Source: an uncultured Candidatus Saccharibacteria bacterium (GTDB taxonomy: Bacteria; Patescibacteriota; Minisyncoccia; Phycocordibacterales; Zambryskibacteraceae). From it: a stretch of DNA of 64,000 nucleotides. The stretch spans positions 28,778-92,777 of the forward strand of contig CAYHDI010000001.1 in the NCBI GenBank assembly GCA_964355645.1, written 5' to 3'. Below the pieces are notes generated by a model. It made no database searches. It saw only the letters and a program-made list of their open reading frames with translations, and was not told the DNA's origin. Below, piece by piece: positions 23,515-53,143 of the stretch. The position numbers and the translations under genes are program-made. How positions within the stretch are numbered: the stretch's first letter is position 1; each line of letters opens with the position of its first letter.

Positions 23515-24050
23515 AGATTTGGAGTTTCCGGTCTTGTTATCTGCACACCGATTTTCTCTTGAAGCATATCTCGCATTTCTCCTGCAAGTTCTTTGTCTAT
23601 CGCTTCAATCACTACTTCAGAGAAACCTTCCTGGCCCGCGTCTTCGTGTCCGGCGGTGGTCATAACAATCTTGCTTAAACCCAAAAGCTGGAAAGTGGGA
23701 TTTCTTTCGATATTTATATCTTGAATTTGTTTGTAGGGAATGGAAGTTTCTCTTTTTTTAATCAAACCTCTTTTCATCCGAAGATCATATTCTTCGAAAG
23801 TAAACGAGTATTTTGAATAATTAAGCCACCCGACGATGAAAGTAATGGCAAACAAAACAATCGTCATCAAAATCAAAAATGAAACGATGGAAGAAATAGT
23901 CGGTTGAGCGGATAATAGAGGTAAAACATCTCTAAACAACATCACAAAAATAGTTAGAATGAGAGCAATCCCTGGGATTTTGGATTTTTCCAAACACAAA
24001 ATCACGAAAGCTCTTTTGCCCAAATGTGTTTCTTGTCCTTTGGTAATCAT
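23511..24050 (-). CDS. membrane protein with bacterial PH (bPH_2/YdbT-like) domain
   Basis: two TM segments then PH-like region; 4-nt overlap with PAP2 gene. Confidence 0.6.
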   Translation of the reverse strand: MITKGQETHLGKRAFVILCLEKSKIPGIALILTIFVMLFRDVLPLLSAQPTISSIVSFLILMTIVLFAITFIVGWLNYSKYSFTFEEYDLRMKRGLIKKRETSIPYKQIQDINIERNPTFQLLGLSKIVMTTAGHEDAGQEGFSEVVIEAIDKELAGEMRDMLQEKIGVQITRPETPNL

Positions 24051-24082
24051 AAAAGAGAGACGAGTTCAATTATACTCCTCTT

Positions 24083-24484
24083 TCATTCTGTGGTCGCTCC
24101 GTCGAATTCTGGTCCATCTGCTTCAGCTTCTGCTTTGGTTGCACGTACTACTCCATCTTGGTGATGAGCGGGAGAATAAATCGTATAAAGTTTTAATTCG
24201 TTGTCCGATGATGTGTTAATCACATTGTGCTTTGAGCCGGCCGGCACGATGACGGCATCTCCGCCCGAGACATCATAAGTAGTTTCATTAATAACGATCT
24301 GACCATTACCACTTTCAAAACGGAAAAACTGATCATTGTCCGGGTGAACTTCTGAACCAATCTCTTCTTTCGGTTGAAGACTCATGAGCACAAGCTGGCT
24401 GTGCACTGAGGTGTACAAAACTTTTCTAAAATTTGTATTCTCAAGCGTCGCTTGTTCAATATTTTGTTTAAATCCTTTTTTCAT
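24083..24484 (-). CDS. cupin-domain protein
   Basis: cupin_2 two-motif pattern G-x5-H-x-H ... G-x5-P-x-G-x2-H-x3-N. Confidence 0.75.
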   Translation of the reverse strand: MKKGFKQNIEQATLENTNFRKVLYTSVHSQLVLMSLQPKEEIGSEVHPDNDQFFRFESGNGQIVINETTYDVSGGDAVIVPAGSKHNVINTSSDNELKLYTIYSPAHHQDGVVRATKAEAEADGPEFDGATTE

Positions 24485-24505
24485 AATTTACAGTATACCA
24501 AACAA

Positions 24506-24580
24506 TGGGGTGACTACTGGGAGTTGAACCCAGACTGAAAGCTCCACAAGCTTTAGTGCTACCGCTACACCATAGCCACC
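24506..24580 (-). tRNA. tRNA-His (anticodon GTG) with G-1 and encoded CCA
   Basis: manual cloverleaf: acceptor GTGGCTA/TAGTCAC, anticodon loop TTGTGGA, C73, extra 5' G. Confidence 0.85.
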
Positions 24581-24594
24581 ATTATGCGCACGAT

Positions 24595-25164
24595 TTAATT
24601 ATAACTCGGCGCGGACTCCTTTATACCAGACTTGTGGTTCGAGAGTCGAGCCAAGGCATAAAGAATACTTGAGAGACGATTCATGAATTGAAGGGTTTCT
24701 GCGCCGAGCTCCACCGCTTTTAGCGGGGCCCCGCCAGAGGCGGTGGTTACTCCAACCACTCGCCTCTCAGCTCGACGGGCAATGGTTCGAGCCACATCGA
24801 ATGTCGCACCGAGCTCCGTACCTCCAGAGATGAAGAAAGTTTTAATCGGAGGCATTTCTTTCTCTGCGAGGTCAATCCAATTTTCAACTTCTTTCACTTT
24901 CTCGCCAGAGAGATGCTTGTCCGCTCCGGCTACTTCGGCTTGAACCATGAACAAATTTTCTTGAAGACGATGAACAATTTCTTCGAAACTCTTTTCTCCA
25001 ATTTTAAATCCGGCTTCTGCAGACTTAACTTTGCACAAACCCAAGAATGAATTTATCTCATCGAGAGAACCGAGGGTCTCGGCAATATTCGAGCTCTTAG
25101 AAACCCTTTGGTCACAGCCAAAAGTTTTCGTTGTTCCATCATCACCCTTCTTGGTATAAAGCAT
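24595..25164 (-). CDS. PduO-type ATP:cob(I)alamin adenosyltransferase (MMAB family); contains palindromic element at 24721-24756
   Basis: YTKKGDDGTT N-terminal signature. Confidence 0.85.
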   Translation of the reverse strand: MLYTKKGDDGTTKTFGCDQRVSKSSNIAETLGSLDEINSFLGLCKVKSAEAGFKIGEKSFEEIVHRLQENLFMVQAEVAGADKHLSGEKVKEVENWIDLAEKEMPPIKTFFISGGTELGATFDVARTIARRAERRVVGVTTASGGAPLKAVELGAETLQFMNRLSSILYALARLSNHKSGIKESAPSYN

Positions 25165-25172
25165 AAACTCGG

Positions 25173-25415
25173 TTAAACCTTTTGGACTTCAGTACCTTCT
25201 TTGACTTTCTGTTCGGTTCGCAAGCCAATGATTTTGCCGACACCCGCTTTCTCTACCGGCTGATGGTCAATTTGAAGCGAATCTACATCTTGTTCAAAGT
25301 CGGCACCATGACCTTCAAACTTCACTCGATCGCCAACTTTCAAAGCAGACTTCAGCTCCACGATAGCCACCCCCAAGTGATCATAATAATGTGTAACTTT
25401 GCCTATCTTTTTCAT
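25173..25415 (-). CDS. small hypothetical protein (80 aa)
   Basis: ORF only. Confidence 0.4.
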   Translation of the reverse strand: MKKIGKVTHYYDHLGVAIVELKSALKVGDRVKFEGHGADFEQDVDSLQIDHQPVEKAGVGKIIGLRTEQKVKEGTEVQKV

Positions 25416-25455
25416 ACCACCTAATTATACACCCTGTGCGCGGGACAGGAATTGA

Positions 25456-25537
25456 ACCTGCATGCCTTTCGGCGCTACCACCTCAAGGTAGTGCGTCTAC
25501 CAATTTCGCCACCCGCGCATCGCGTTCACAATAACAG
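25456..25537 (-). tRNA. tRNA-Leu (anticodon GAG), type II with long variable arm
   Basis: manual fold: anticodon stem CTACC/GGTAG, loop TTGAGGT. Confidence 0.8.
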
Positions 25538-25565
25538 GAATGTGAGTACTCTTCAAGAATAATAA

Positions 25566-25639
25566 GTTTTCGTGCCTTGCGCAGGCCGACGGGCCGAGCA
25601 GAGCAAATTTCTAGCAAGAAATTATGTGTGCAAAGAAAA
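25566..25639. repeat. 74-nt conserved element, copy 1 (93% identical to 31298-31371); contains hairpins GGCC-GACG-GGCC and AATTTCT-AGCA-AGAAATT
   Basis: seen directly; 5 mismatches in 74 nt. Confidence 0.85.
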
Positions 25640-25643
25640 ATTA

Positions 25644-26033
25644 TTATTCTGAAGTTACTGTGGCTTCAGTTTCAACCTCTTTGGCCATACGAGTATTGCG
25701 CATCTGGCGACGAATATCCTTGGCTGCTTTGTCTCGAATATGATAGAGCTTGGCTCGACGAACCTTTGAACGCTTCACTACTTCGATTTTATCAATCATT
25801 GGAGAATAAAGGAGGAAAGTTTTCTCTACCCCTACTCCTGAAGCGACTCGGCGAACGGTGAAAGTAGCTCCCGCTTCGTGGCCGTGCTTGCGCGCAAGCA
25901 CGAGACCCTCGAAAGCCTGCAGGCGAGTCTTACCCTTTTCCTGAATCTTCTGCCAGACACGAGTAGAATCACCCGCTCGAAAATCAAGCTTGGCTCTTTC
26001 CTCCGTATTTACTGGTGAATGCACTGTTTTCAT
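25644..26033 (-). CDS. rplS: 50S ribosomal protein L19
   Basis: RLQAFEGLVLARKHG...TFTVRRV...GVEKTFLLYSPMIDKIEV matches L19. Confidence 0.9.
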   Translation of the reverse strand: MKTVHSPVNTEERAKLDFRAGDSTRVWQKIQEKGKTRLQAFEGLVLARKHGHEAGATFTVRRVASGVGVEKTFLLYSPMIDKIEVVKRSKVRRAKLYHIRDKAAKDIRRQMRNTRMAKEVETEATVTSE

Positions 26034-26063
26034 AAGTCAGACCAATTTAACACGTAGTGCTCT

Positions 26064-27137
26064 TTATGGCAAATCCCTAACAAATTTTTTATATCTATGA
26101 ATCAAACTTCGCATGCTTTGTGATTTTGTATGAGATAAATGGCCTAAATATGAAGAAAAGGATTGATTGAATTCTCCTTTTGTTGATTTTCCATTTTGTA
26201 AGTTATAAGTCATTTTTCCTAACTTTTTTTGTATTCTTTTTTTAGTTTTAGTTCTAGGCACAACGTGATAAGGCATTGCAACGGCTCCTAAAAAATCTAC
26301 ACCTTGGAGAAACGAACGGATACTAACCTTACTTGGATGTAATTCGAGCTTTAAATGTTCTATTAAAAACTTTTGTATAGGATAGATAAATAGATTCAAT
26401 TTTTCACGACTCGAATCAAGGATAACAAAATCATCGCAGTATCTAATGTAATTTTTACTTATTTTGGTTTTAATAAACCAATCAAACTTGTTCATGTATA
26501 CATTAGCGAAAAGCTGACTGGTAACATTACCGAGAGGTAAACCCTTCCCTGATATTTTATGAAAGGTATCAATTATCTTCGCCAATAAATCTAAGGTTTT
26601 CTTGCATTCAATTTTTTCTTTTAGGAGATTATTTAAAATATTGTGGTTAATTGAATCAAAAAACTTTCGTATATCACACTTGAGCGCATAGGTCTGACCT
26701 GTGTAGTTTCGACTGATTTTTCGAGACATTTTGACAAGTCTATCTATACCTGCATGAGTACCCTTGCCCGTTCTACTAGCATACGAATCAAAAATAAAAT
26801 CATTATCAAAAATTGGATACAAAACCTGATGGATGGCTTGATACAAAACCCTATCTCGAACTGAGGCTTTATGAATCTTTCTTGGTTTTGGATCACGAAT
26901 AGAAAAAGATGTATATCCATCACATGTCCATTGTCCTGAAATTAGTTCTTTTTGAAGCCCAAAAATGTTATTCTCAAGATTGAGAGAAAAATTTACAATA
27001 TCAAGTTTTTTGTTTTTGTTTTTTTTGAATTCTCGCCAAGCGAAAAATAAATTCTCGAGCGAAATAATTTTATGGAAAATACTTCTATCAAGACCCCCCC
27101 CCCCAACGGTATTTTGGTGGCTCCGATTATCGTTCAT
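26064..27137 (-). CDS. DGR-type reverse transcriptase (first ATG 27137; ORF track start 27143 is TTG)
   Basis: RT domains with LPLGNVTSQ (DGR-specific I/LGxxxSQ motif 4) and YCDDFVIL (YxDD); no maturase/endonuclease domains; N-terminal GGGG encoded by (G)11 tract. Confidence 0.88.
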   Translation of the reverse strand: MNDNRSHQNTVGGGGLDRSIFHKIISLENLFFAWREFKKNKNKKLDIVNFSLNLENNIFGLQKELISGQWTCDGYTSFSIRDPKPRKIHKASVRDRVLYQAIHQVLYPIFDNDFIFDSYASRTGKGTHAGIDRLVKMSRKISRNYTGQTYALKCDIRKFFDSINHNILNNLLKEKIECKKTLDLLAKIIDTFHKISGKGLPLGNVTSQLFANVYMNKFDWFIKTKISKNYIRYCDDFVILDSSREKLNLFIYPIQKFLIEHLKLELHPSKVSIRSFLQGVDFLGAVAMPYHVVPRTKTKKRIQKKLGKMTYNLQNGKSTKGEFNQSFSSYLGHLSHTKSQSMRSLIHRYKKFVRDLP

Positions 27138-27461
27138 GTGCAAAAATTATATCAGGAATTATACATAATCGCCGAACAAATTCCGAAGCGAGATAAGCTT
27201 GGCCTACATGCCGAGATTGAGAAAACTTGTATCAAAACACTCTCACTCTGTATTCAGGCATCACTGGCTTCTAAAGGTGACAAATTTTCTTTAATTCGTG
27301 ATATAAGAGTATTAATAGAAACAATGAAATACCTTATTCGCGTTTCTCATGAACTTTTAATCATTAATCAGAAAAAATATATTTCTTTGGAATCAAAACT
27401 GCAGGAAATTTCTAAGATGGCTAACGGGTGGGAGAGATATGCAACAAACAATCCCGCTTAA
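27072..27461 (+). CDS. avd: Avd-like accessory variability determinant (four-helix-bundle, TIGR02436-like), antisense to RT; possibly starts at GTG 27112
   Basis: IPKRDKLGL...KY...L.EI.KM.NGW pattern of Avd/four-helix-bundle family; (C)11 tract 27094-27104 in N-terminal codons. Confidence 0.7.
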   Translation: MENTSIKTPPPNGILVAPIIVHVQKLYQELYIIAEQIPKRDKLGLHAEIEKTCIKTLSLCIQASLASKGDKFSLIRDIRVLIETMKYLIRVSHELLIINQKKYISLESKLQEISKMANGWERYATNNPA

Positions 27462-27482
27462 GCGGGATTGTTGTAAAACTTC

Positions 27483-27590
27483 GGGAACCGAGGTTCGAAT
27501 TGCGATTCGTCGGAGCGTACCAGTTCACGTTCGACTTGTCGTCGTTCCAGTTCGCGTTCGGCACGTTGCCATTCGAATTGCGAGAACCTC
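27483..27590 (-). repeat. DGR1 template repeat (TR)
   Basis: 108-nt match to VR 27833-27940; ~17 of 18 differences at TR adenines (minus strand); TR ORF is Asn-rich. Confidence 0.85.
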
Positions 27591-27763
27591 CGTTGCTCTC
27601 CTCCGTCCGTATCACCGAAAGACGTTTGCCTTTCTGCGTTTATGAATTTCTCGCGGTACTCTCGAGCGTTGTGTTGAAGAAAGCAAGCAGTTTTGTTTTA
27701 TTGCGATAAATTGTTATTCAAAAGAATCAATTAAACAATCGCGTAAATATTATATATGAAAAT

Positions 27764-27790
27764 CCGCCAAGCACACGAGGTGCTTGGCGG
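27764..27790 (-). promoter_or_regulatory. GC hairpin CCGCCAAGCAC-ACGAG-GTGCTTGGCGG ~30 nt 3' of VR1, preceded by conserved TTATATGAAAATC; DGR homing-associated stem-loop candidate
   Basis: perfect 11-bp stem; equivalent motif+hairpin at DGR2. Confidence 0.6.
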
Positions 27791-27816
27791 AGGGTTAAAG
27801 AGAAAAGATGCAAGGT

Positions 27817-28524
27817 TTAGACACAAACCCTGCGGGAACCGAGGTGCGAATCGCGACTCGTCGGAGCGTACCAGCCCACGCCCGACTTGCCGCCGCCCCC
27901 GTACGCGCCCGGCACGTCGCCACTCGAATCGCGAGAACCTGAATTGAGTGTCCAGGTCTGGCGGTCGGGATGGTGGCCGTGCTTCAGGAAATACATCGCC
28001 GAGAACAGCGCGTACTCGAGATGAGTCGATGTCTTGATGCCCATCTCGGCGATTTGGTTCGCCGATTTGTTCATCAGATTCTCGTCCGGGGTTTCCGAGT
28101 CGAGCATCAGCACGACGTACGAATCATTCCCGGGATTGCGCTCGTCCTTGTGGGTCGGAATGGCAAGATCGAGGGAGTCGCTCGTGTACTTCCAACACGG
28201 GAAGAGTTTCTTCCGAGCTTGGAACACGTCCTCCTTCGGTTCGCCATTCGTCCACTCGACGAGCTCGCGCATCATGGGTACCGCGAGGTACTGCCGAGCA
28301 TCCGGGGCCCGCGGGATGAAAAGGTTCGAGAAGTCCAGGGCCTTGCCGAAGAGCTTTTCGTACAACACCGACATGAACGAAACGTCGATGTTGCTGTCAA
28401 CCACTTGCGTGGCGACAGCAACCTTCTTCACCAGAGCGTCCCGAAGACGCCGAGCGAGAAGCGAAGGATTGCTGATGTAGCGCTGTTGCTCCTTCGTTGT
28501 GAGAAGTGGCAACTGCGCGAGCAC
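27817..28524 (-). CDS. DGR1 target (variable) protein; VR at 27833-27940 encodes C-terminal CLec-like NSGSRDSSGDVPGAYGGGGKSGVGWYAPTSRDSHLGSRRV
   Basis: VR/TR pairing; GC-rich gene; no signal peptide evident. Confidence 0.8.
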   Translation of the reverse strand: MLAQLPLLTTKEQQRYISNPSLLARRLRDALVKKVAVATQVVDSNIDVSFMSVLYEKLFGKALDFSNLFIPRAPDARQYLAVPMMRELVEWTNGEPKEDVFQARKKLFPCWKYTSDSLDLAIPTHKDERNPGNDSYVVLMLDSETPDENLMNKSANQIAEMGIKTSTHLEYALFSAMYFLKHGHHPDRQTWTLNSGSRDSSGDVPGAYGGGGKSGVGWYAPTSRDSHLGSRRVCV

Positions 28525-28717
28525 AGCACCCCCCGAAGGTGAGCGTCTGCTTGTGGAGCTCGGGCGTGAATGGAGCTTTCCCAGCGCGTGGCATGGTTTC
28601 TTCTCCTCGTTGTAGATGTTCAGACAGAAGCTCAGGTGCTTCTTTGTCTAAGTCTGATTATATCACACTCTATTATAAAAAGCAAGTTTCCAAATGGTTC
28701 ACCACCTTGGAACCAAT

Positions 28718-29449
28718 TTATGGCTTAAAATCTATCTTTTTAAAGGCTTCTAGGAAATCCTCTGGGAAATTGGCCAACACTCGGTGTTGACCACCTTTAG
28801 TATCTACGAACACTACCTCTCGAGCATGAAGGGCAAGACGCTTGAATCCGAGCATCATGGGTTTAGTCGAGGCATAGAGTTTGTCTCCTATCACTGGTCG
28901 TTGAAGAGATTGAAAATGCACCCGAATTTGATGCGTGCGGCCAGTCTTCGGCTTGGCTTCCACAAGAGTTATCCCTTCTGCCCGTTTGAGCACTCTAAAG
29001 TATGTGACCGCATCTCTCATCTCCCCCGTGGCTCCTCGACCAGCAGAATATTTGCGAAAATCGCTCGGGCTCTTGCCTATCGGCATGCTGAGTGTCCCAT
29101 GGTTTTCTTTCATGTTGCCGTACACAAATGCATAGTAAGTTTTTTGAATTTTTCTATCAAGAAATTGCTTTTTTAGACACTCGAAACCTTTTTGAGTTTT
29201 CGCCAGGAGAAGAACACCAGAAGTATCTCGGTCCAGACGATGCACAATCCCACTTCGATCAATAATCTCCCCACCCTCAAGTCGAATCATTTCTCCCACA
29301 TTCTTCGCTTCAGGATATTTTTCTACGAGCCATTCCGAAACAGATGGCTCCTTGGTCCGTCCATCACTATGCACCACAATCCCCGCCGGTTTGTTCAGTG
29401 CGAGAATATCTTCGTCTTCATAAATAATGTTGGGTGTGAGATCGGTCAT
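28718..29449 (-). CDS. RluA-family pseudouridine synthase; contains in-frame palindrome at 28771-28790
   Basis: HRLDRDTSGVLLLAK catalytic motif. Confidence 0.88.
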   Translation of the reverse strand: MTDLTPNIIYEDEDILALNKPAGIVVHSDGRTKEPSVSEWLVEKYPEAKNVGEMIRLEGGEIIDRSGIVHRLDRDTSGVLLLAKTQKGFECLKKQFLDRKIQKTYYAFVYGNMKENHGTLSMPIGKSPSDFRKYSAGRGATGEMRDAVTYFRVLKRAEGITLVEAKPKTGRTHQIRVHFQSLQRPVIGDKLYASTKPMMLGFKRLALHAREVVFVDTKGGQHRVLANFPEDFLEAFKKIDFKP

Positions 29450-30117
29450 TTGTTTCCAAGAATAATATCACCAATTCTTTCAATCCATCCTTTGATGGTT
29501 AAAAACAACTTGGTGTCCTGTATTGAAATATCAATCGTACCGAAGGGTAAGGTTTTCCTTTTTTGTGAGCTTGCACTACTTGGTTTTATATAAGTTTTAT
29601 AAAATTGTTTCTTTGGTATACCAGATATTTGTGACCAATACTTTTCAATTTTGTTTATATCAGCACCTTCAAAAGTGTGTATATGGGCATGAAATTTCTC
29701 TTCAGAGACCCGACATATCTCCCTAAAAAATCTCATCATTACTTTTATAATTCTTGGATCACTATTCGCTAAGCTAACAGACCAATTGCCCGCTTTTCTT
29801 CCCTCTCCCCAATATATCATTGCTCCTACAAGTTTGAGTTCTTTTTTTGATATAGTCAAAAAATCCTCTTTGGCTAAATTGATTATCACTTGTCTTTTTT
29901 TGTTTTCATTAATGACCCGACTGGTTCGGCGTCGTTCTATAGATTCCATACTTCTTCCTCTTTCAGAAATTGTGTTCCTTTGAATGTCTGTGAGCAAAAT
30001 ATCCCGCGTCCAAAAACTAACACTGGCTTTTGAATAACCGGTCTCCTTTACAATTTGATTCATTGATTTACCTTGTTTACGCAAGGCTCTCGCTCGCTCC
30101 CTTTCTTTTATTTTCAT
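29446..30117 (-). CDS. HTH-domain protein with possible degenerate LAGLIDADG-like core, adjacent to tRNA cluster
   Basis: N-terminal HTH (ALRKQGKSMNQIVKETGYSKASV); LVGAMIYWGEGRK weakly LAGLIDADG-like; layout similar to 47124-47966. Confidence 0.35.
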   Translation of the reverse strand: MKIKERERARALRKQGKSMNQIVKETGYSKASVSFWTRDILLTDIQRNTISERGRSMESIERRRTSRVINENKKRQVIINLAKEDFLTISKKELKLVGAMIYWGEGRKAGNWSVSLANSDPRIIKVMMRFFREICRVSEEKFHAHIHTFEGADINKIEKYWSQISGIPKKQFYKTYIKPSSASSQKRKTLPFGTIDISIQDTKLFLTIKGWIERIGDIILGNK

Positions 30118-30197
30118 AAGTAGAGTATAACATACATAATAGAGATACTCCAGTCCAAACTTGAGATTTACCTGATTTAGTGTATAAATTAGGTGGC

Positions 30198-30273
30198 GCG
30201 GGATTAGCTCAGTTGGTAGAGCAGTCGCTTTACACGCGGATGGTCACAGGTTCGAGTCCTGTATCCCGCACCA
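30198..30273 (+). tRNA. tRNA-Val (anticodon TAC), CCA encoded
   Basis: manual cloverleaf; acceptor GCGGGAT/ATCCCGC; loop TTTACAC. Confidence 0.85.
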
Positions 30274-30281
30274 AACCAAGT

Positions 30282-30365
30282 GCCGAGGTGGTGAAATCGG
30301 TAGACACGCAGCGTTCAGAACGCTGTCACCGCAAGGTGGTAGGAGTTCAAGTCTCCTCCTCGGCA
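30282..30365 (+). tRNA. tRNA-Leu (anticodon CAG), long variable arm
   Basis: acceptor GCCGAGG/CCTCGGC; anticodon loop TTCAGAA. Confidence 0.8.
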
Positions 30366-30390
30366 CAAAAATGTGTTAATTTGAATGCAC

Positions 30391-30462
30391 GTCCTCGTAG
30401 CTTAATGGATAAAGCAGTGCTCTTCTAAGGCATTGATGCAGGTTCGATTCCTGCCGAGGACA
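30391..30462 (+). tRNA. tRNA-Arg (anticodon TCT)
   Basis: acceptor GTCCTCG/CGAGGAC; loop CTTCTAA; T-loop TTCGATT. Confidence 0.8.
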
Positions 30463-30575
30463 CAAAATTAAAAAATGCCGACTTTGGTTGGAGTTTTTTA
30501 ATTATTTTGAACAAAAAATAAGTCTGTGCTAGGGTTAATTTAGGCGAAACAGATCACACCAACCTTGAGGACAAG

Positions 30576-30914
30576 ATGTGCTCACCAATGACAGCATGGC
30601 ATTACGCCATTATCCGAATGGCATTCGCTGTTGCGGTTAACAGGGTGTTCCCGAACATCAGACTGGATGAGACAAAAATTGGGGTCAAATGGAGTGAGCG
30701 TGGAGACGTCAGCTTCCAAGTTAGCGCCGACCACACTGATGGTCGTACTTTTCAAGGAGAAGTTCGCCCCCAATGGATACAAGATTACAGTCGTTGGTGT
30801 CTTGTTGAACTGAGAGGGCATCAAATACCTGTAACAGGCAGAATTCAAGGTGAGAAGCCTGGTGAAGTATGGTATGTCGGATATGAATATTCCAAAATGA
30901 CCCAAAGCGCCTAG
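30576..30914 (+). CDS. hypothetical protein (112 aa), moderately GC-rich
   Basis: ORF followed by terminator AAAGCGCCTAGGCGCTTTTT (30904-30930). Confidence 0.4.
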   Translation: MCSPMTAWHYAIIRMAFAVAVNRVFPNIRLDETKIGVKWSERGDVSFQVSADHTDGRTFQGEVRPQWIQDYSRWCLVELRGHQIPVTGRIQGEKPGEVWYVGYEYSKMTQSA

Positions 30915-30940
30915 GCGCTTTTTCTTTTTTTTAAAAATAA

Positions 30941-31267
30941 TTATTTCACTTTCAATCCAACGGGTACATCGTCTGCGACTCGGAGAAGAGAGAAAACTTC
31001 ATCGTTAGAGACAGCGAGAATCATCGCTTCGCTTGTAAGACCCATGAGGGCGCGGGGTTCGAGATTCGTGGCAAACGCACATTTCACTCCAACTATCGCT
31101 TCGGGTTCAGGGAAATACTTTCTAATACCAGAAACGACTGTACGGGGCTTCTCTTCGCCAAAGTTCACCGTAAGTTTAAAGAGCTTGTCGCTTCCTTCGA
31201 TGATTTCCGCAGACACAATTTCACCTACACTTATTTCTCCTTTTTTGAATTCATCTATAGTTATCAT
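30941..31267 (-). CDS. stand-alone tRNA-binding domain protein (CsaA/Trbp111/MetRS-C-terminal-like)
   Basis: OB-fold pattern VGEIVSAE...KL.KL.VNFGEE..R.VVSGI. Confidence 0.75.
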   Translation of the reverse strand: MITIDEFKKGEISVGEIVSAEIIEGSDKLFKLTVNFGEEKPRTVVSGIRKYFPEPEAIVGVKCAFATNLEPRALMGLTSEAMILAVSNDEVFSLLRVADDVPVGLKVK

Positions 31268-32057: not shown

Positions 32058-32519
32058 GTGACTGAGGAATACAAAAGACATCCAAATACTAAATGCTGTA
32101 TTTGTGGAAAGAGTATTTATAAGAGGCCATCAATAATTAAAGCCAACAAAGGCTTGGTATTTTGTAGCCAAAAGTGCTATGGATTTTCGTGTCGTAAGGA
32201 AATACCTTGTATTGTCTGTGGAAAAGCAATCTTGGCCGGACTTAACAAAAAAACCTGCAGTAGGAAATGTTCAAATATTTACAGAACTGGAATTAAATAC
32301 AAAATTGGTAGACCAAATGACAAAGCTGAAAAAGCTAGACATTTAAAAATAAAATTGCTTAGGGAAAGAGGAGAGAAATGTGAAAGGTGCGGTTATTCAA
32401 AGGGCAAAATATTGCAAATTCATCACAAAAATTGTGACAGAAATGATAATCATTTAGATAATCTAGAGATTGTTTGTCCAAACTGTCATTATGAGGAACA
32501 TTATTTAGAAAAAAGTTAA
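32058..32519 (+). CDS. HNH endonuclease with N-terminal Cys-rich zinc ribbons
   Basis: C-terminal HHKNCDRNDNHLDNLEIVCPNCH HNH motif. Confidence 0.8.
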   Translation: MTEEYKRHPNTKCCICGKSIYKRPSIIKANKGLVFCSQKCYGFSCRKEIPCIVCGKAILAGLNKKTCSRKCSNIYRTGIKYKIGRPNDKAEKARHLKIKLLRERGEKCERCGYSKGKILQIHHKNCDRNDNHLDNLEIVCPNCHYEEHYLEKS

Positions 32520-32565
32520 TCAAACAAATAAGTGCCAAAATAAGAGCATTCTGGTATTATCGTTA

Positions 32566-32656
32566 ACAAGGAGGAGTCGCATAGAGGCCTAGTGCGGTAG
32601 TCTTGAAAACTACTATACCGAAAGGTATCGTGAGTTCGAATCTCACCTCCTCCGCC
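32566..32656 (+). tRNA. tRNA-Ser (anticodon TGA), long variable arm, CCA encoded
   Basis: acceptor GGAGGAG/CTCCTCC; loop CTTGAAA. Confidence 0.85.
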
Positions 32657-32731
32657 AAGTTTAACACTCAGTTAATGTGTTCTTTTAATTCTATGTCTTC
32701 TTTTTTCTTATCAAATTTAACAATAAAGATA

Positions 32732-50855: not shown

Positions 50856-51279
50856 ATTCAATACTCCTCGCATTATCTCCCAAGTGCCCAAAGAAAATTT
50901 TCTTCGCCTCGTTTGGAATAATTCCTTGCACTTTTTCTGGCCATTCAATGAGAATTAAATTCTCTGGTTCTTGAATTATTTCCTCCCAGCCCAAATGTAG
51001 AAGTTCTGAATCTTTTTCCAACCTATACGCATCAATATGAATCAAGTTTTTGAAACCTTGAAAATCAATCGGGTAAATTTTCTCTATTACAAATGTCGGG
51101 CTTTGCATTGTTTCCTTCACTCCTAAAAAACTTCCAACCGCTTGAGAAAACGCCGTCTTGCCCGAACCGAGCTCTCCAGCAAGCGCAACTACGACGGCTC
51201 GGTCCCCAGATTTTAATCCTTCTATAAACCCCCGTGCCACTTCGCCCGTCTCCTCCAGACTCTTAGAAATATGCTTCAT
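50845..51279 (-). CDS. tsaE: tRNA threonylcarbamoyladenosine biosynthesis ATPase TsaE
   Basis: GELGSGKT Walker A. Confidence 0.85.
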   Translation of the reverse strand: MKHISKSLEETGEVARGFIEGLKSGDRAVVVALAGELGSGKTAFSQAVGSFLGVKETMQSPTFVIEKIYPIDFQGFKNLIHIDAYRLEKDSELLHLGWEEIIQEPENLILIEWPEKVQGIIPNEAKKIFFGHLGDNARSIEYED

Positions 51280-51698
51280 TTCTCTATTGTACCATTTTGA
51301 GCTTCTGGTGCTCTAAGGATTGTTTGAGTAAGTTTATTTGTATTCCCGTGTTTCAACAGCCCTAAATAGGACTGGGTGGTTTCTTGGTTATTTTGGCTAT
51401 CTTTGAGTCTTTTAAACATTCTATTTTTTGTACTAGTTCTCAAAATTCTATAATCAGAAAAATGTACCCACCCCAGAAAATCAATACCTGAAACTAGGGT
51501 TTTAATGGAAACTTTGTTTGGATGTAATTCAAGTTTAAGAATCTGGTTTAGATAACATACGATATATCGCATGTTAAGCATAAGATAATTTTTGTTTTGA
51601 AAGAACTTTCGCACATCACATTTCAATACCCAACATTGTTTTGTGTTGTTCTTGGAAACTTTGTATGAAAATTCTCTAAACCTGTTCATATGATACAT
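51276..51698 (-). pseudogene. degenerate DGR reverse transcriptase remnant (140 aa; lacks domains 1-2 and motifs 4/5 incl. YxDD)
   Basis: N-terminus ~RT1 FAWREFKK fused to ALKCDIRKFF region; C-terminus ~RT1 thumb (LELHPNKVSI...GIDFLGW). Confidence 0.7.
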
Positions 51699-52076
51699 AA
51701 TATCGCGACCCCCCCCCCCGCAAAAGCACCCGAGGTGCTTTTTAAGGGAAGAGCAACTTATAAATATTGGCTTCAGTTATATAAACAATTTCGGAAACCA
51801 GAACGTTTTGGACTCGGTGAAAAAATAGATACACTGTTTCTAGAGGTATTAGAACTTATCTATACAGCAATCTATTTAGAAACATCAGCGAAAATACCAA
51901 AACTTGAGCTCGCTATTCTTAAATTAGACAGAATAAAATTGTTCTCTGAAATTGCTTGGGAAAATAAACTGATACTCACAGATAAATACACTCTTTTTCT
52001 AACACAACTTCAAGAAATCGGCAGGCAACTTTCCGGTTGGAAGAAAAGTTTGATAACAAAAACTTCCACCCTATAA
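51690..52076 (+). CDS. avd: Avd-like four-helix-bundle protein (paralog of 27072-27461), (C)11 at 51709-51719
   Basis: RKPERFGL...KY...L.EI....SGW pattern; ATG overlaps RT-remnant ATG in CATATGATACATATG. Confidence 0.7.
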   Translation: MIHNIATPPPAKAPEVLFKGRATYKYWLQLYKQFRKPERFGLGEKIDTLFLEVLELIYTAIYLETSAKIPKLELAILKLDRIKLFSEIAWENKLILTDKYTLFLTQLQEIGRQLSGWKKSLITKTSTL

Positions 52077-52100
52077 AAAGCGGAAGAAAATATATAGTTT

Positions 52101-52210
52101 CGGAAAAGTACCACGTTCTCGGCATTCCAACGATTCGAGTTCTCGAGCTTGTTGACGTTCACGTTCCAGCCATTCGAGTTCCGGTTCACGTTGAGAAAGA
52201 ACACTGACGC
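52101..52210 (-). repeat. DGR2 template repeat (TR)
   Basis: 110-nt match to VR 52491-52600 with ~26 differences, all but one at TR adenines (minus strand); Asn-rich TR ORF. Confidence 0.85.
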
Positions 52211-52412
52211 TTTTGTACAACAAGCCATCTATGCCACTACCCCTTGATCACTCTCGAGGTTGTATCGTATTCGGAATCTCTATTCCTTAGTTTGTTATAC
52301 CAACTGTTTATTTTTTTGTGAGTCGTGACTTACGACTCGAGCCCACCACACTAAGCGTAACAGCGAAGTGTGCCAGTGTAGCCTGATTTTATTATATGAA
52401 AATCGGGTGACT

Positions 52413-52438
52413 CTTGCGAGTCACCCGAGTAGTTTTGT
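52413..52438 (-). promoter_or_regulatory. GC hairpin TCGGGTGACTC-TTGC-GAGTCACCCGA preceded by TTATATGAAAATC, ~45 nt 3' of target2 stop
   Basis: perfect 11-bp stem; same arrangement as DGR1. Confidence 0.6.
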
Positions 52439-52483
52439 TTCTGGCCCAGATCAGAAGTGACCAAGGGTCAAAGAGACAGAGGT

Positions 52484-53143
52484 TCAGTTGCGGAAAAGTA
52501 CCACGCCCCCGGCACGCCAACGATTCGAGAACTCGAGCCTGAGGACGAACACGCGCCAGCCAAGCGAGCGCAGGTACACGTCGAGAAAGAACACCGACGC
52601 TCCATCGAAGATGGGAACCAAGTTCGCCCAACCGTCCGTGCGGAGGTGGAAGGGGTTCTCACCCCGGTCACAAGCAACGAGCATGTCGTCGACCTGCTTG
52701 GGAGAGAAACACTTGCCACACTCGACGAGCGTCCCCGCGACAAGATCGAGATTCTTCTCGATGCCGAGGTGCTCGACGGACATCTCAATGAAGTTCATCT
52801 CTGCACCGAGCTGGTAACTCGACGCACGACCTTCGATCATCGCCGGCACGGACTTCCGAAGCCAGTTGTCTAGATCTCCATCACGGTAAACGATGTGCTT
52901 ACCGCGGAAGAGATCCTTGGTCTTGCACTCGCCGACTGCTTGTACGGTGATGTTCGTGGCGAGAGCGATGAGGCTGGCAACGACTGCCTTGAAGCGGTTC
53001 TTGATCGCCTCACCCCAAAGTCTGATGGCTTCGACGGTATTCTGAATCGCCCACTGTGCATCCTCATTCGAGAACTCACGGATGGACGACTGGTGTTCGA
53101 CCACGAGGCCAGCGAGCTTGTACTGCTGTTGTTCGGTTGCCAT
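52484..53143 (-). CDS. DGR2 target protein; VR 52491-52600 at C-terminus (...NRWRAGGVVLFRN)
   Basis: VR/TR pairing; GC-rich. Confidence 0.8.
   Translation of the reverse strand: MATEQQQYKLAGLVVEHQSSIREFSNEDAQWAIQNTVEAIRLWGEAIKNRFKAVVASLIALATNITVQAVGECKTKDLFRGKHIVYRDGDLDNWLRKSVPAMIEGRASSYQLGAEMNFIEMSVEHLGIEKNLDLVAGTLVECGKCFSPKQVDDMLVACDRGENPFHLRTDGWANLVPIFDGASVFFLDVYLRSLGWRVFVLRLEFSNRWRAGGVVLFRN

Follow-up and report, generated by a model that had tools for sequence, protein, structure and literature searches.

How cells restrain and time the mutagenesis carried out by their diversity-generating retroelements (DGRs) is, to our knowledge, largely unknown, and the locus described here raises the question whether a simple-sequence repeat could do it. 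DGRs of CPR/Patescibacteria were reportedly first surveyed by Paul et al. in 2017. The element in question, DGR1, lies in a 64 kb stretch of DNA (the window, i.e. the whole stretch that was analysed), flanked by rplS (L19) on one side and a gene for an RluA-type pseudouridine synthase on the other. It consists of the following features (coordinates in the window).

26064-27137 (27143 with TTG), minus strand: gene of the reverse transcriptase (RT), 357 aa from ATG 27137; TTG 27143 is also in frame.
27072-27461, plus strand: avd, 129 aa if started at ATG 27072, with GTG 27117 and GTG 27138 as further possible starts.
27094-27104: simple-sequence repeat at the centre of the RT/avd overlap, read as C11 on the plus strand and as G11 on the RT strand.
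27447-27472, minus strand: stem-loop that follows the template repeat (TR) at 6 nt, with a stem of 11 bp and the loop TTAA.
27479-27589 (core 27483-27589), minus strand: TR, from the repeat finder and the adenine pattern.
27590-27762, minus strand: TR leader, which runs from the target terminator to the TR and includes an AT-rich stretch resembling a promoter.
27763-27791, minus strand: hairpin resembling an intrinsic terminator after the target gene, 12 bp including 8 GC, followed by TTTTCATATA.
27810-27833, minus strand: hairpin abutting the VR/IMH and spanning the target stop codon.
27830-27940 (core 27834-27940), minus strand: variable repeat (VR), from the repeat finder and the adenine pattern.
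27817-28594, minus strand: target gene, delimited by homologue alignment, with the VR at its C-terminus.

The first point to be settled is whether this is a DGR at all. The RT had been described as carrying LPLGNVTSQ (the DGR-type LGxxxSQ motif) and YCDDFVIL and as devoid of maturase and endonuclease domains, and this is confirmed by an intact open reading frame (ORF) at 26064-27137 with the catalytic motifs in place, in which Pfam recognizes RVT_1 alone (E = 1.5e-24) and neither GIIM nor HNH. The top NCBIfam match is a group II RT/maturase model (TIGR04416, 142.7 bits), which might suggest a group II intron, retron or defence RT with the 111-nt repeat as an ordinary duplication; however, this score is far under the cut-off of 300, and the closest relative of solved structure is the RT of the Bordetella phage DGR (8ub7_A, E = 2.5e-40, 142 bits), in an alignment that takes in IGSLTSQLFANVY/LGNVTSQLFANVY and YMDD/YCDD. 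Other RTs in the PDB follow at 74 bits (group II intron, E = 1.2e-19) and 71 bits (retron-type), which puts the DGR RT ahead by 68 bits and upholds the DGR type proposed in the preliminary description over the group II or retron type. Besides, an Rfam search of 25900-28800 turned up no RNA of a group II intron or retron and nothing beyond noise (rsmX, E = 0.2). At least 484 relatives of the RT have been found, nearly all in metagenome-assembled genomes (MAGs) of Patescibacteria, with whose RTs it shares 44-56% identity.

The repeats argue in the same direction. The repeat finder reports a single pair of 111 nt, 27479-27589 and 27830-27940, with an offset of 351 and 83% identity, and a search of the 64 kb window with the TR adenines masked gave no further TR copy. 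Aligned computationally, TR and VR differ at 19 positions, 18 of which carry an adenine in the minus-strand TR (a T on the plus strand), changed to G in 15 cases, to C in two and to T in one (p = 1.4e-11 by the hypergeometric distribution for 18 or more of the 19 mismatches to fall on the 31 adenines in 111 positions), so the adenine specificity claimed beforehand holds; the lone other difference is T>G at 27549. The earlier count of 17 adenine positions among 18 mismatches is reproduced over 27483-27589, and the repeat pair given there as a 108-nt TR is real (107-111 nt), but position 27590, taken as its end, lies just outside: it is a C/G mismatch, and the count over exactly 27483-27590 is thus 17 of 19. 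Nearly all TR adenines (29/31) occupy codon positions 1-2, namely those of Asn and Asp codons, and the TR/VR differences at adenines lie nearly all at these two positions of Asn codons. Translated in the frame of the VR, the TR reads GSRNSNGNVPNANWNDDKSNVNWYAPTNRNSNLGSR, with 11 Asn codons (7 AAC, 4 AAT), in a good agreement with the Asn-rich peptide with AAC codons noted previously; the VR alters all 11 of them and encodes GSRDSSGDVPGAYGGGGKSGVGWYAPTSRDSHLGSR. It makes up the last ~37 codons of the target, while the TR is 342 nt away from the RT start. Among 13 homologues, the VR keeps its scaffold residues unchanged and varies at the Asn-templated positions, and in the relative L004 the TR is much like that of DGR1 whereas the VRs differ at the adenine positions.

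The third component is the avd gene, which lies between TR and RT and is antisense to RT, TR and target. Its product matches the Pfam family bAvd (PF22296, E = 2.8e-15, 57.1 bits with a cut-off of 40) and, at 59 bits, the NCBIfam model DivGenRetAVD, which is under the equivalog cut-off of 80. An antisense avd is found in the same position and orientation in all ~70 relatives with upstream flank, and 60 of ~70 related CPR loci have a TR/VR pair with adenine bias whose order and orientation are the same. This gene had been overlooked in the preliminary description, as had the homopolymer in the RT/avd overlap.

An RT lineage proper to DGRs, a TR/VR pair with adenine bias and codon phase, an accompanying Avd, IMH/IMH*-like repeat ends and a predicted C-type-lectin fold in the target (both described below), and the recurrence of the same cassette in 60 related loci leave a chance duplication next to an unrelated RT with practically no probability. 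We are highly confident that DGR1 is a genuine chromosomal DGR of CPR/Patescibacteria, with an RT of clade 2 and the cassette architecture B3, 'TR-(avd)-RT'. RT clade 2 is restricted to CPR (Roux et al. 2021, PMC8144416). B3 is defined by Wu et al. [quoted passage not shown] Since the B3 architecture has already been published, DGR1 adds to a known kind and does not found a new class.

The ends of the repeats and the structures around them resemble those expected of a DGR. At the 3' end of the TR (27479-27494) there is an IMH*-like block, ACCTCGGTTCCCG followed by AAG, and at the 3' end of the VR (27830-27845) an IMH-like block, ACCTCGGTTCCCG followed by CAG; the shared block comprises 13 nt, is GC-rich and nearly free of A, and the TR continues with A, the VR with C. 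L004 has an identical block with an identical A/C difference, and in 35 of 59 loci a TR adenine makes the first difference past the block that matches (A>C in 22), the commonest end pattern being AAG/AAA in the TR vs CAG/CAA in the VR. From sequence, these blocks and the hairpin adjoining the VR would have the roles of IMH, IMH* and the associated structure; the position of this hairpin (27810-27833) corresponds to that of the inverted repeat downstream of the IMH in the Bordetella DGR (PMC5758913). The stem-loop after the TR, in the loop of which the avd stop codon falls, may form the 3' end of the TR RNA or be a structural part of it. Most of 61 loci have a corresponding hairpin behind the TR, of differing sequence and often with a U-rich tail, and it is stabler on the TR strand than on the complement in 48 loci vs 10 (Wilcoxon p = 2e-7). 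The region 27430-27800, which includes leader, TR, terminator and post-TR hairpin, is 88% identical to L004, where the terminator position is occupied by a different sequence that also folds into a hairpin. In a promoter scan the promoter-like sites did not exceed those in shuffled sequences, and since no consensus sigma-70 site scored in the TR leader, we only infer a promoter for the TR.

The target gene is the one component that departs from the expected form. Its GC-richness had been pointed out before, and at ~58% it does stand out against the window (~42%) and the RT (32%); target genes with unusually high GC3 next to AT-rich enzyme genes in the same 2.5-kb cassette are a pattern of the whole clade. 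The gene had been placed at 27817-28524 with the VR at its 3' end, which is correct, but the real start is at 28594 and the ORF is split by a +1 frameshift. As assembled, it consists of a 65-aa ORF (28397-28594) and a 235-aa ORF (27817-28524), which become one of ~258 aa if one G is removed from the G6 run at 28529-28534. The frameshift lies in this run, 66 nt past the start, is also present in a separately assembled contig, and precludes the making of full-length target by ordinary translation. It costs ~23 N-terminal residues, upstream of the modelled helices and the lectin-fold domain, and GTG 28524 could still yield the 235-aa lectin-fold part, with a G-rich stretch (the G6 run) 5 nt upstream. 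Thus, 'complete' as reported earlier is apt for the machinery, with RT, Avd, TR, VR and IMH-like ends all present, and has to be qualified for the target ORF because of the frameshift close to its 5' end.

The target protein has no signal peptide, transmembrane segment or Pfam domain, and small targets without such domains or signals have been remarked on for clade 2 by Roux et al. (2021, PMC8144416). Its family comprises 1643 representatives at E <= 1e-3 and corresponds to no Pfam model; sequence searches with the target (Pfam, NCBIfam, phmmer against PDB, and a PDB profile search with 127 sequences) gave no match, and Foldseek against PDB and BFVD gave no significant match. An AlphaFold model based on an alignment of 127 sequences reached a pLDDT of 93.1, superseding an earlier run with 14 sequences (pLDDT 53.5). 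In this model, the C-terminal domain is predicted with high confidence and matches proteins of the C-type-lectin/FGE fold, including three solved DGR variable proteins, which bears out the CLec-fold C-terminus suggested for the VR. The target has no detectable sequence similarity to TvpA (2y3c), TaqVP (5vf4) and FGE-type lectins; it matches neither FGE-sulfatase nor DUF1566 of Pfam, and its N-terminal helical region differs from theirs.

The frameshift could mean that DGR1 has been recently disabled and is now a fossil, so that a functional protein is no longer diversified in the population. In keeping with such a history, the frameshift recurs in the second contig, one TR/VR difference falls outside the adenines, and the VR is identical in both assemblies that span it, so no population heterogeneity is visible at the consensus level. 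Decay is also common in related elements: only a gutted remnant is left of the RT of DGR2, located in the same window, TR and avd are missing from L003, the RT of L004 is split, and L086 has an orphan target. On the other hand, the RT ORF with its catalytic motifs is intact, RT and avd are both in frame across G11, the TR retains 31 adenines at the codon positions designed for them, and neither the IMH-like ends nor the hairpins show damage, while the frameshift takes away only the short N-terminal segment and leaves the GTG start with its upstream G-rich stretch. We consider a fossil unlikely. The DGR2 target was also considered as kin to the DGR1 target family, and no relation was found by BLASTP or hhalign.

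If DGR1 operates according to the Bordetella phage paradigm, from which we take the steps of the mechanism, the TR would be transcribed, probably as a separate short RNA with a predicted start past the target terminator, within 27700-27760, and a 3' end in or close to the post-TR hairpin. A complex of RT and Avd would reverse-transcribe this RNA with misincorporation opposite template adenines, and the cDNA would replace the VR, in a direction set by the IMH end and the hairpin. As a result, a protein of ~258 aa without signal peptide would have ~13 codons of its ligand-binding face recoded.

The DGR of Bordetella phage BPP-1 (mtd-avd-TR-brt) shares with DGR1 the RT-Avd pair, the adenine-specific transfer from TR to VR, and the GC-rich 3' boundary of the IMH type with a hairpin downstream. 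In contrast to BPP-1, avd of DGR1 lies downstream of the TR and is read from the opposite strand, and for this reason the region after the TR, which in BPP-1 provides the spacer RNA, is antisense avd. DGR1 is also cellular and not phage-borne, its target of ~258 aa has no secretion signal whereas that of BPP-1 is a tail fibre, and its RT and avd share a head-to-head overlap with a homopolymer inside. CPR DGRs (PMC5758913, PMC8144416) have the same order as DGR1, target(VR) - TR - antisense avd - RT, and likewise reside in the chromosome of a small genome of the Patescibacteria type. DGR1 as such is one further CPR DGR, and nothing essential separates it from this group.

This leaves the homopolymer. 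The head-to-head overlap of RT and avd measures 66 nt, is codon-aligned and surrounds the G11/C11 run, which encodes Gly4 in RT and Pro3 in Avd. Runs of at least 8 G or C occur in the window only here (27094-27104) and at the DGR2 twin (51709-51719). A repeat is present at the overlap position in 67 of 76 related loci, in the form of G8-15, (GA)n, (CT)n or (GT)n, and 66 of these 67 are polypurine/polypyrimidine tracts. The overlap repeat and the GC3 split between target and enzyme genes are features of the whole CPR group, not of DGR1 alone, and we found no description of either in the CPR DGR literature consulted. Because the predicted starts of RT and avd lie inside each other, codon-aligned around the run, its length would set both frames at once. 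In DGR1 as assembled, both genes are in frame across G11; two other contigs have G11 as well, a same-species scaffold has G12 and a gap of 10 N at the tract, and another contig ends 2 nt off the tract. Samples containing exactly this locus are ERR3858110, ERR3858111, SRR32696697, ERR3654040 and the runs behind ERZ1292618. Scanning of metagenomes for the flanks of the tract, with a gap of variable length between them, found nothing.

Restricting the frame count to 47 loci with one unambiguous in-frame phase, we found 14 in frame, 19 off by 1 nt and 14 off by 2 nt, a split that fits a uniform distribution (chi-square p = 0.59). The nine loci without a repeat, by comparison, have an in-frame ATG for avd in all cases and for RT in 8 of 9. 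The phases in which RT and avd are ON coincide more often than expected (33 observed vs 18.3), but this is not independent evidence, because each ATG is antisense to a conserved His codon, so that the phases are bound to coincide. A fixed RT start across the G run was considered and rejected: a conserved 'ATG-AAT-AAT' start keeps the frame in 7 loci and misses it in 11, and none of the three frames is preferred (25/28/25).

Such runs might be nothing but ordinary coding sequence for poly-Gly and poly-Pro, or a structural element of the DNA (H-DNA at a divergent promoter), with the out-of-frame lengths either due to assembly errors or irrelevant because translation starts elsewhere. The polypurine/polypyrimidine nature of almost all repeats would suit this explanation, the coincidence of the two frames follows from the geometry of the His codons alone, and avd often has another possible start codon past the run. 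For RT, the same escape is rejected for most loci, since they have no in-frame canonical start codon between the run and the conserved N-terminus. A conserved peptide would allow synonymous GGN or CCN codons, yet the runs are pure; their lengths range from 8 to 15 nt and are not multiples of three, and four distinct repeat types occur at one site. Homopolymers are prone to sequencing errors, and the scaffold gap at the tract and the contig end beside it are in line with that, but an out-of-frame rate of 33 in 47 loci is far too high for consensus errors to suffice as an explanation, with 14/47 repeat-bearing loci in frame as against 9/9 (avd) and 8/9 (RT) of the repeat-less ones. A purely coding or structural role is thus conceivable but rather doubtful.

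The other reading, for which our support is tentative and somewhat short of even, is that in CPR DGRs, including DGR1, a contingency repeat within the RT/avd overlap acts as the gate of the mutator. Two marks of a simple-sequence repeat (SSR) switch are found among these sequences: the repeat lies where its length would set the frame, and ON and OFF tract lengths occur in related genomes. Slippage of the tract during DNA replication or transcription would bring RT and Avd jointly in or out of frame, and targeted hypermutation would then be limited to a subpopulation or a low level, as a form of bet-hedging on evolvability. Contingency loci with poly-G tracts are known from Neisseria and Campylobacter (e.g. 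PMC6321876, PMC5084427), and CPR DGRs resemble SSR contingency loci in having a tract of G8-15 or dinucleotides in the 5' coding region, with a phase that is random across genomes and about two thirds out of frame. The differences are that a single tract in an antisense overlap would gate two divergent genes, and that the gated function would be the mutator (RT and Avd) and not a surface structure. Our literature search found no description of a repeat-gated RT/avd in DGRs.

On its own, DGR1 is ordinary, because the class to which it belongs has already been catalogued in thousands. The enrichment of GC at synonymous sites of the target may bear on the avoidance of off-target adenine mutagenesis. 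If the gating is true, mixtures of tract lengths are predicted within a population, as is a correlation of tract phase with VR turnover. The conserved slippage-prone repeat between RT and avd would then constitute a simple on/off mechanism for DGR mutagenesis, operating in a lineage that is hard to culture.

The diversity-generating retroelement at 26064-28594 (DGR1) is, judged by its sequence, a real and essentially complete DGR of a type known from CPR bacteria, with a frameshifted target gene. It comprises the following features, in window coordinates:

26064-27137, minus strand: RT, 357 aa from its ATG
27072-27461, plus strand: avd, bAvd family (Pfam PF22296, 57 bits, cut-off 40)
27447-27472: stem-loop of 11 bp, 6 nt past the TR, its loop containing the avd stop codon
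27479-27589: template repeat (TR)
27763-27791: strong terminator-like hairpin after the target
27810-27833: hairpin abutting the VR
27830-27940: variable repeat (VR)
27817-28524: target ORF

Pfam recognizes nothing but RVT_1 in the RT ORF, whose best solved relative is the Bordetella phage DGR reverse transcriptase (8ub7; E = 2.5e-40, 142 bits), aligned from residue 19 and across both LGNVTSQLFANVY and YCDD, compared with 74 bits for group II intron RTs and 71 bits for retron-type RTs. It passes no NCBIfam model; its score with the group II model, 143 bits, is below the cut-off of 300. The avd gene, located between TR and RT on the strand opposite to RT, was overlooked in the preliminary description; its product scores 59 bits with the NCBIfam model DivGenRetAVD, under the cut-off of 80.

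TR and VR (111 nt, 83% identity, offset 351) were returned by a repeat finder as the sole long direct repeat in 24000-31000, and no third copy was found by scanning the whole window with adenines masked. Aligned in register, they exhibit 19 differences, 18 of which fall at plus-strand T, i.e. at adenines of the minus (coding) strand of the TR (15 A>G, 2 A>C, 1 A>T), the single exception being T>G at 27549; as adenine makes up 31 of the 111 TR positions, p = 1.4e-11 for 18 or more of the 19 differences to fall on adenines by chance. The earlier count of 17 of 18 mismatches at TR adenines is exact over 27483-27589, and position 27590, the last of the TR as then placed (27483-27590), lies just beyond the repeat. 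Nearly all TR adenines (29 of 31) occupy codon position 1 or 2 in the VR reading frame, in which the TR translates to GSRNSNGNVPNANWNDDKSNVNWYAPTNRNSNLGSR, and all of its 11 Asn codons (7 AAC, 4 AAT) are replaced in the VR; among 13 close target homologues, the scaffold residues of the VR are invariant and the Asn-templated positions variable. By homology to the Bordetella system, the TR RNA would be copied by RT-Avd, with misincorporation opposite TR adenines, and the resulting cDNA would replace the VR; for DGR1 this mechanism is suggested by sequence signatures.

A scan across GTDB, with each species represented by one genome, found relatives of the RT at more than 484 loci, and the best 80 of these are almost all from Patescibacteria/CPR MAGs, with the top match in Candidatus Taylorbacteria (56% identity). 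An Avd ORF lies directly upstream of RT on the opposite strand in every locus with sufficient upstream flank (~70), and 60 loci carry an adenine-biased TR/VR pair arranged as target(VR) - TR - (avd) - RT, the TR lying flush against the avd 3' end; across these 60 loci A>G is the main change at TR adenines (664/1109), as it is in DGR1 (15/18). DGR1 has architecture B3, 'TR-(avd)-RT', as defined by Wu et al. (PMC5758913), and its RT falls in clade 2 of Roux et al. 2021 (PMC8144416), an RT clade restricted to CPR. The element is chromosomal, flanked by rplS and an RluA-type gene, and the window is part of the 189-kb ENA contig Hain_H52_01um_R2_11, identical save one gap. The surroundings are dense in tRNA genes, with His and Leu on one side and Val-Leu-Arg and Ser on the other (30198-30463, 32058-32657, 24506-25518), and a Logan contig breaks within tRNA genes; a small HNH-endonuclease-like ORF (32058-32519) is found nearby, and an HTH protein (29446-30117) adjoins the RluA-type gene.

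At their 3' ends, TR and VR have a GC-rich block of 13 nt in common, ACCTCGGTTCCCG, followed by AAG in the TR and CAG in the VR; a related locus, L004, has the same block and the same difference after it, and its identity to DGR1 is 88% over a region taking in the ~170 nt from the target terminator to the TR. Past the perfectly matching block, the first difference is a TR adenine in 35 of 59 loci (A>C in 22). Equivalents of the post-TR stem-loop occur in most of 61 loci, with unrelated sequences; in 48 loci the TR strand folds more stably than the complement, with the reverse in 10 (Wilcoxon p = 2e-7); their G-U pairs favour the TR strand and a U-rich tail is often present. We infer that the TR is probably made as its own short RNA, in which the stem-loop could form the 3' terminus or have some other function.

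The target ORF has only 13 homologues by word index; searching 1.84 billion cluster representatives with a profile yielded 1643 at E <= 1e-3; no Pfam domain was found among 127 sequences of the family examined. The homologues place the true start at 28594, with a protein opening MPRAGKAP..., and reveal one extra G in a G6 run at 28529-28534 (TTC GGG GGG T versus TTC GCC GGT or TTT GCG GGT in relatives), a +1 frameshift 66 nt past the ATG, which breaks the gene into ORFs of 65 and 235 aa. A separately assembled Logan contig (ERR3858110) is 100% identical over 4739 nt, including the extra-G run. Translation could restart at the GTG at 28524, which has the G run 5 nt upstream. Since the target is frameshifted and the VR is identical across the available assemblies, present activity of DGR1 is uncertain. 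The frameshift-corrected sequence shows no N-terminal hydrophobic segment, in agreement with Roux et al. on CPR clade-2 targets (PMC8144416). DGR decay is seen among relatives of this target family: L003 (3102-5548) has two paralogous targets and an N-terminally truncated RT, without avd or TR; L004 (6001-8513) has the full layout, yet its RT is split between two ORFs and its tract, G10, is out of phase; in L086 (1913-2692) the target alone remains, between ndk and a DUF2238 gene.

With 14 input sequences the structural model of the target was of low quality (pLDDT 53.5); with 127 it reached pLDDT 93.1 and pTM 0.80. Foldseek with this model gave no significant match by itself, with Mtd and TvpA among the top matches. 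Together with the structure comparison below, the model supports, at the level of predicted structure, the C-type-lectin-fold variable region proposed earlier.

Scores of the target model against known structures
Bd2740 C-terminal domain: 8.0
pFGE: 7.6
CarF: 7.5
TvpA: 7.2
EgtB / OvoA: 6-7
Legionella Lcl C-terminal domain: 6.7
Mtd: 5.8
TaqVP: 5.2
animal C-type lectin domains: ~5

Composition at synonymous sites is sharply divided within the cassette, the target genes having high GC3 and few third-position adenines and RT and avd having low GC3. The trend extends over the clade: at 47 of the 59 loci compared, target GC3 exceeds that of host genes (p = 6e-7), the means being 0.568 (targets), 0.393 (RTs) and 0.440 (host ORFs).

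Base composition in the window (GC; GC3; A at codon position 3)
RT / avd: 32% (RT); 0.27-0.31; 0.32 (RT)
DGR1 target outside VR: ~58%; 0.77; 0.07
DGR2 target (unrelated): GC3 0.72; 0.08
host genes: ~42% (window); 0.35-0.44; 0.24-0.31

The window also contains a second element, DGR2 (51276-53143), with the same B3 layout:

51276-51698: RT remnant, 140 aa, with an internal deletion and LGxxxSQ and YxDD lost
51690-52076, plus strand: avd (Pfam bAvd, 41 bits)
52096-52211: TR
52486-52601: VR
52484-53143, minus strand: GC-rich target, 219 aa, unrelated to that of DGR1

Its TR and VR differ at 23 positions, 22 of them TR adenines. Because the catalytic motifs of its RT are deleted, DGR2 is dead unless the RT of DGR1 serves it in trans; the two Avd proteins share only 24% identity.

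The RT ATG (27137) and the avd ATG (27072) define a 66-nt head-to-head overlap, in the middle of which lies C11 (27094-27104), i.e. G11 on the RT strand, encoding Gly4 in RT and Pro3 in Avd. The only other G/C run of at least 8 nt in the 64 kb is one of equal length at the DGR2 junction (51709-51719). A simple repeat occurs at this overlap in 67 of 76 related loci, 0-48 nt from the first Avd profile position, against a background of 0.12 per 140 nt counted across the remainder of each locus.

Repeat types at the RT/avd overlap
poly-G (G8-G15): 53 loci
(GA)n: 11 loci
(CT)n: 2 loci
(GT)13: 1 locus
none: 9 loci

In a subset of poly-G loci, the window included, the 3' end of the run is fixed ~13 codons ahead of the RT 'NL' motif, a position right at the beginning of bRT, the Bordetella phage RT. 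In most loci no canonical start codon occurs after the run and ahead of the conserved N-terminal part of RT, and start codons upstream of the run fall in all three frames equally (25/28/25). The nine repeat-less loci, taken as a control, keep the head-to-head layout and have an in-frame ATG for avd in 9/9 and for RT in 8/9 (in L037, RT opens MNNRNIGKSVVRSGCHS... and Avd MTTTPDNRFSDISIIH...). Of the repeat-bearing loci, 59 retain an intact RT ORF, and 47 of these have a single phase giving both RT and avd an in-frame ATG beyond the repeat (ON); the assembled tracts are ON in 14, off by 1 nt in 19 and off by 2 nt in 14, a uniform distribution (p = 0.59) that holds for both poly-G (11/16/8) and dinucleotide repeats (3/3/6). 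The coincidence of the ON phase for the two genes is forced by geometry and is not independent evidence, since either ATG, read in antisense, is a conserved His codon of the partner gene.

The DGR1 tract is in the ON phase. G11 is present in two same-species contigs; a same-organism ENA scaffold has G12 followed by 10 N at the tract (L089 2920-2941, corresponding to ~27094-27104), and a Logan contig from another run (L092) ends 2 nt from it (27092), so that the tract may be either heterogeneous in the population or hard to sequence. We read the repeat as a putative contingency-type switch or slippage-dependent expression device that would act on both enzyme genes; it may instead be a polypurine tract with a structural role, or simply coding sequence. 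No mention of a repeat in the DGR RT/avd overlap was found in the searchable literature. This repeat lifts DGR1 above a routine DGR, and, if it is truly a switch and unreported, it would represent a new regulatory principle for DGRs.
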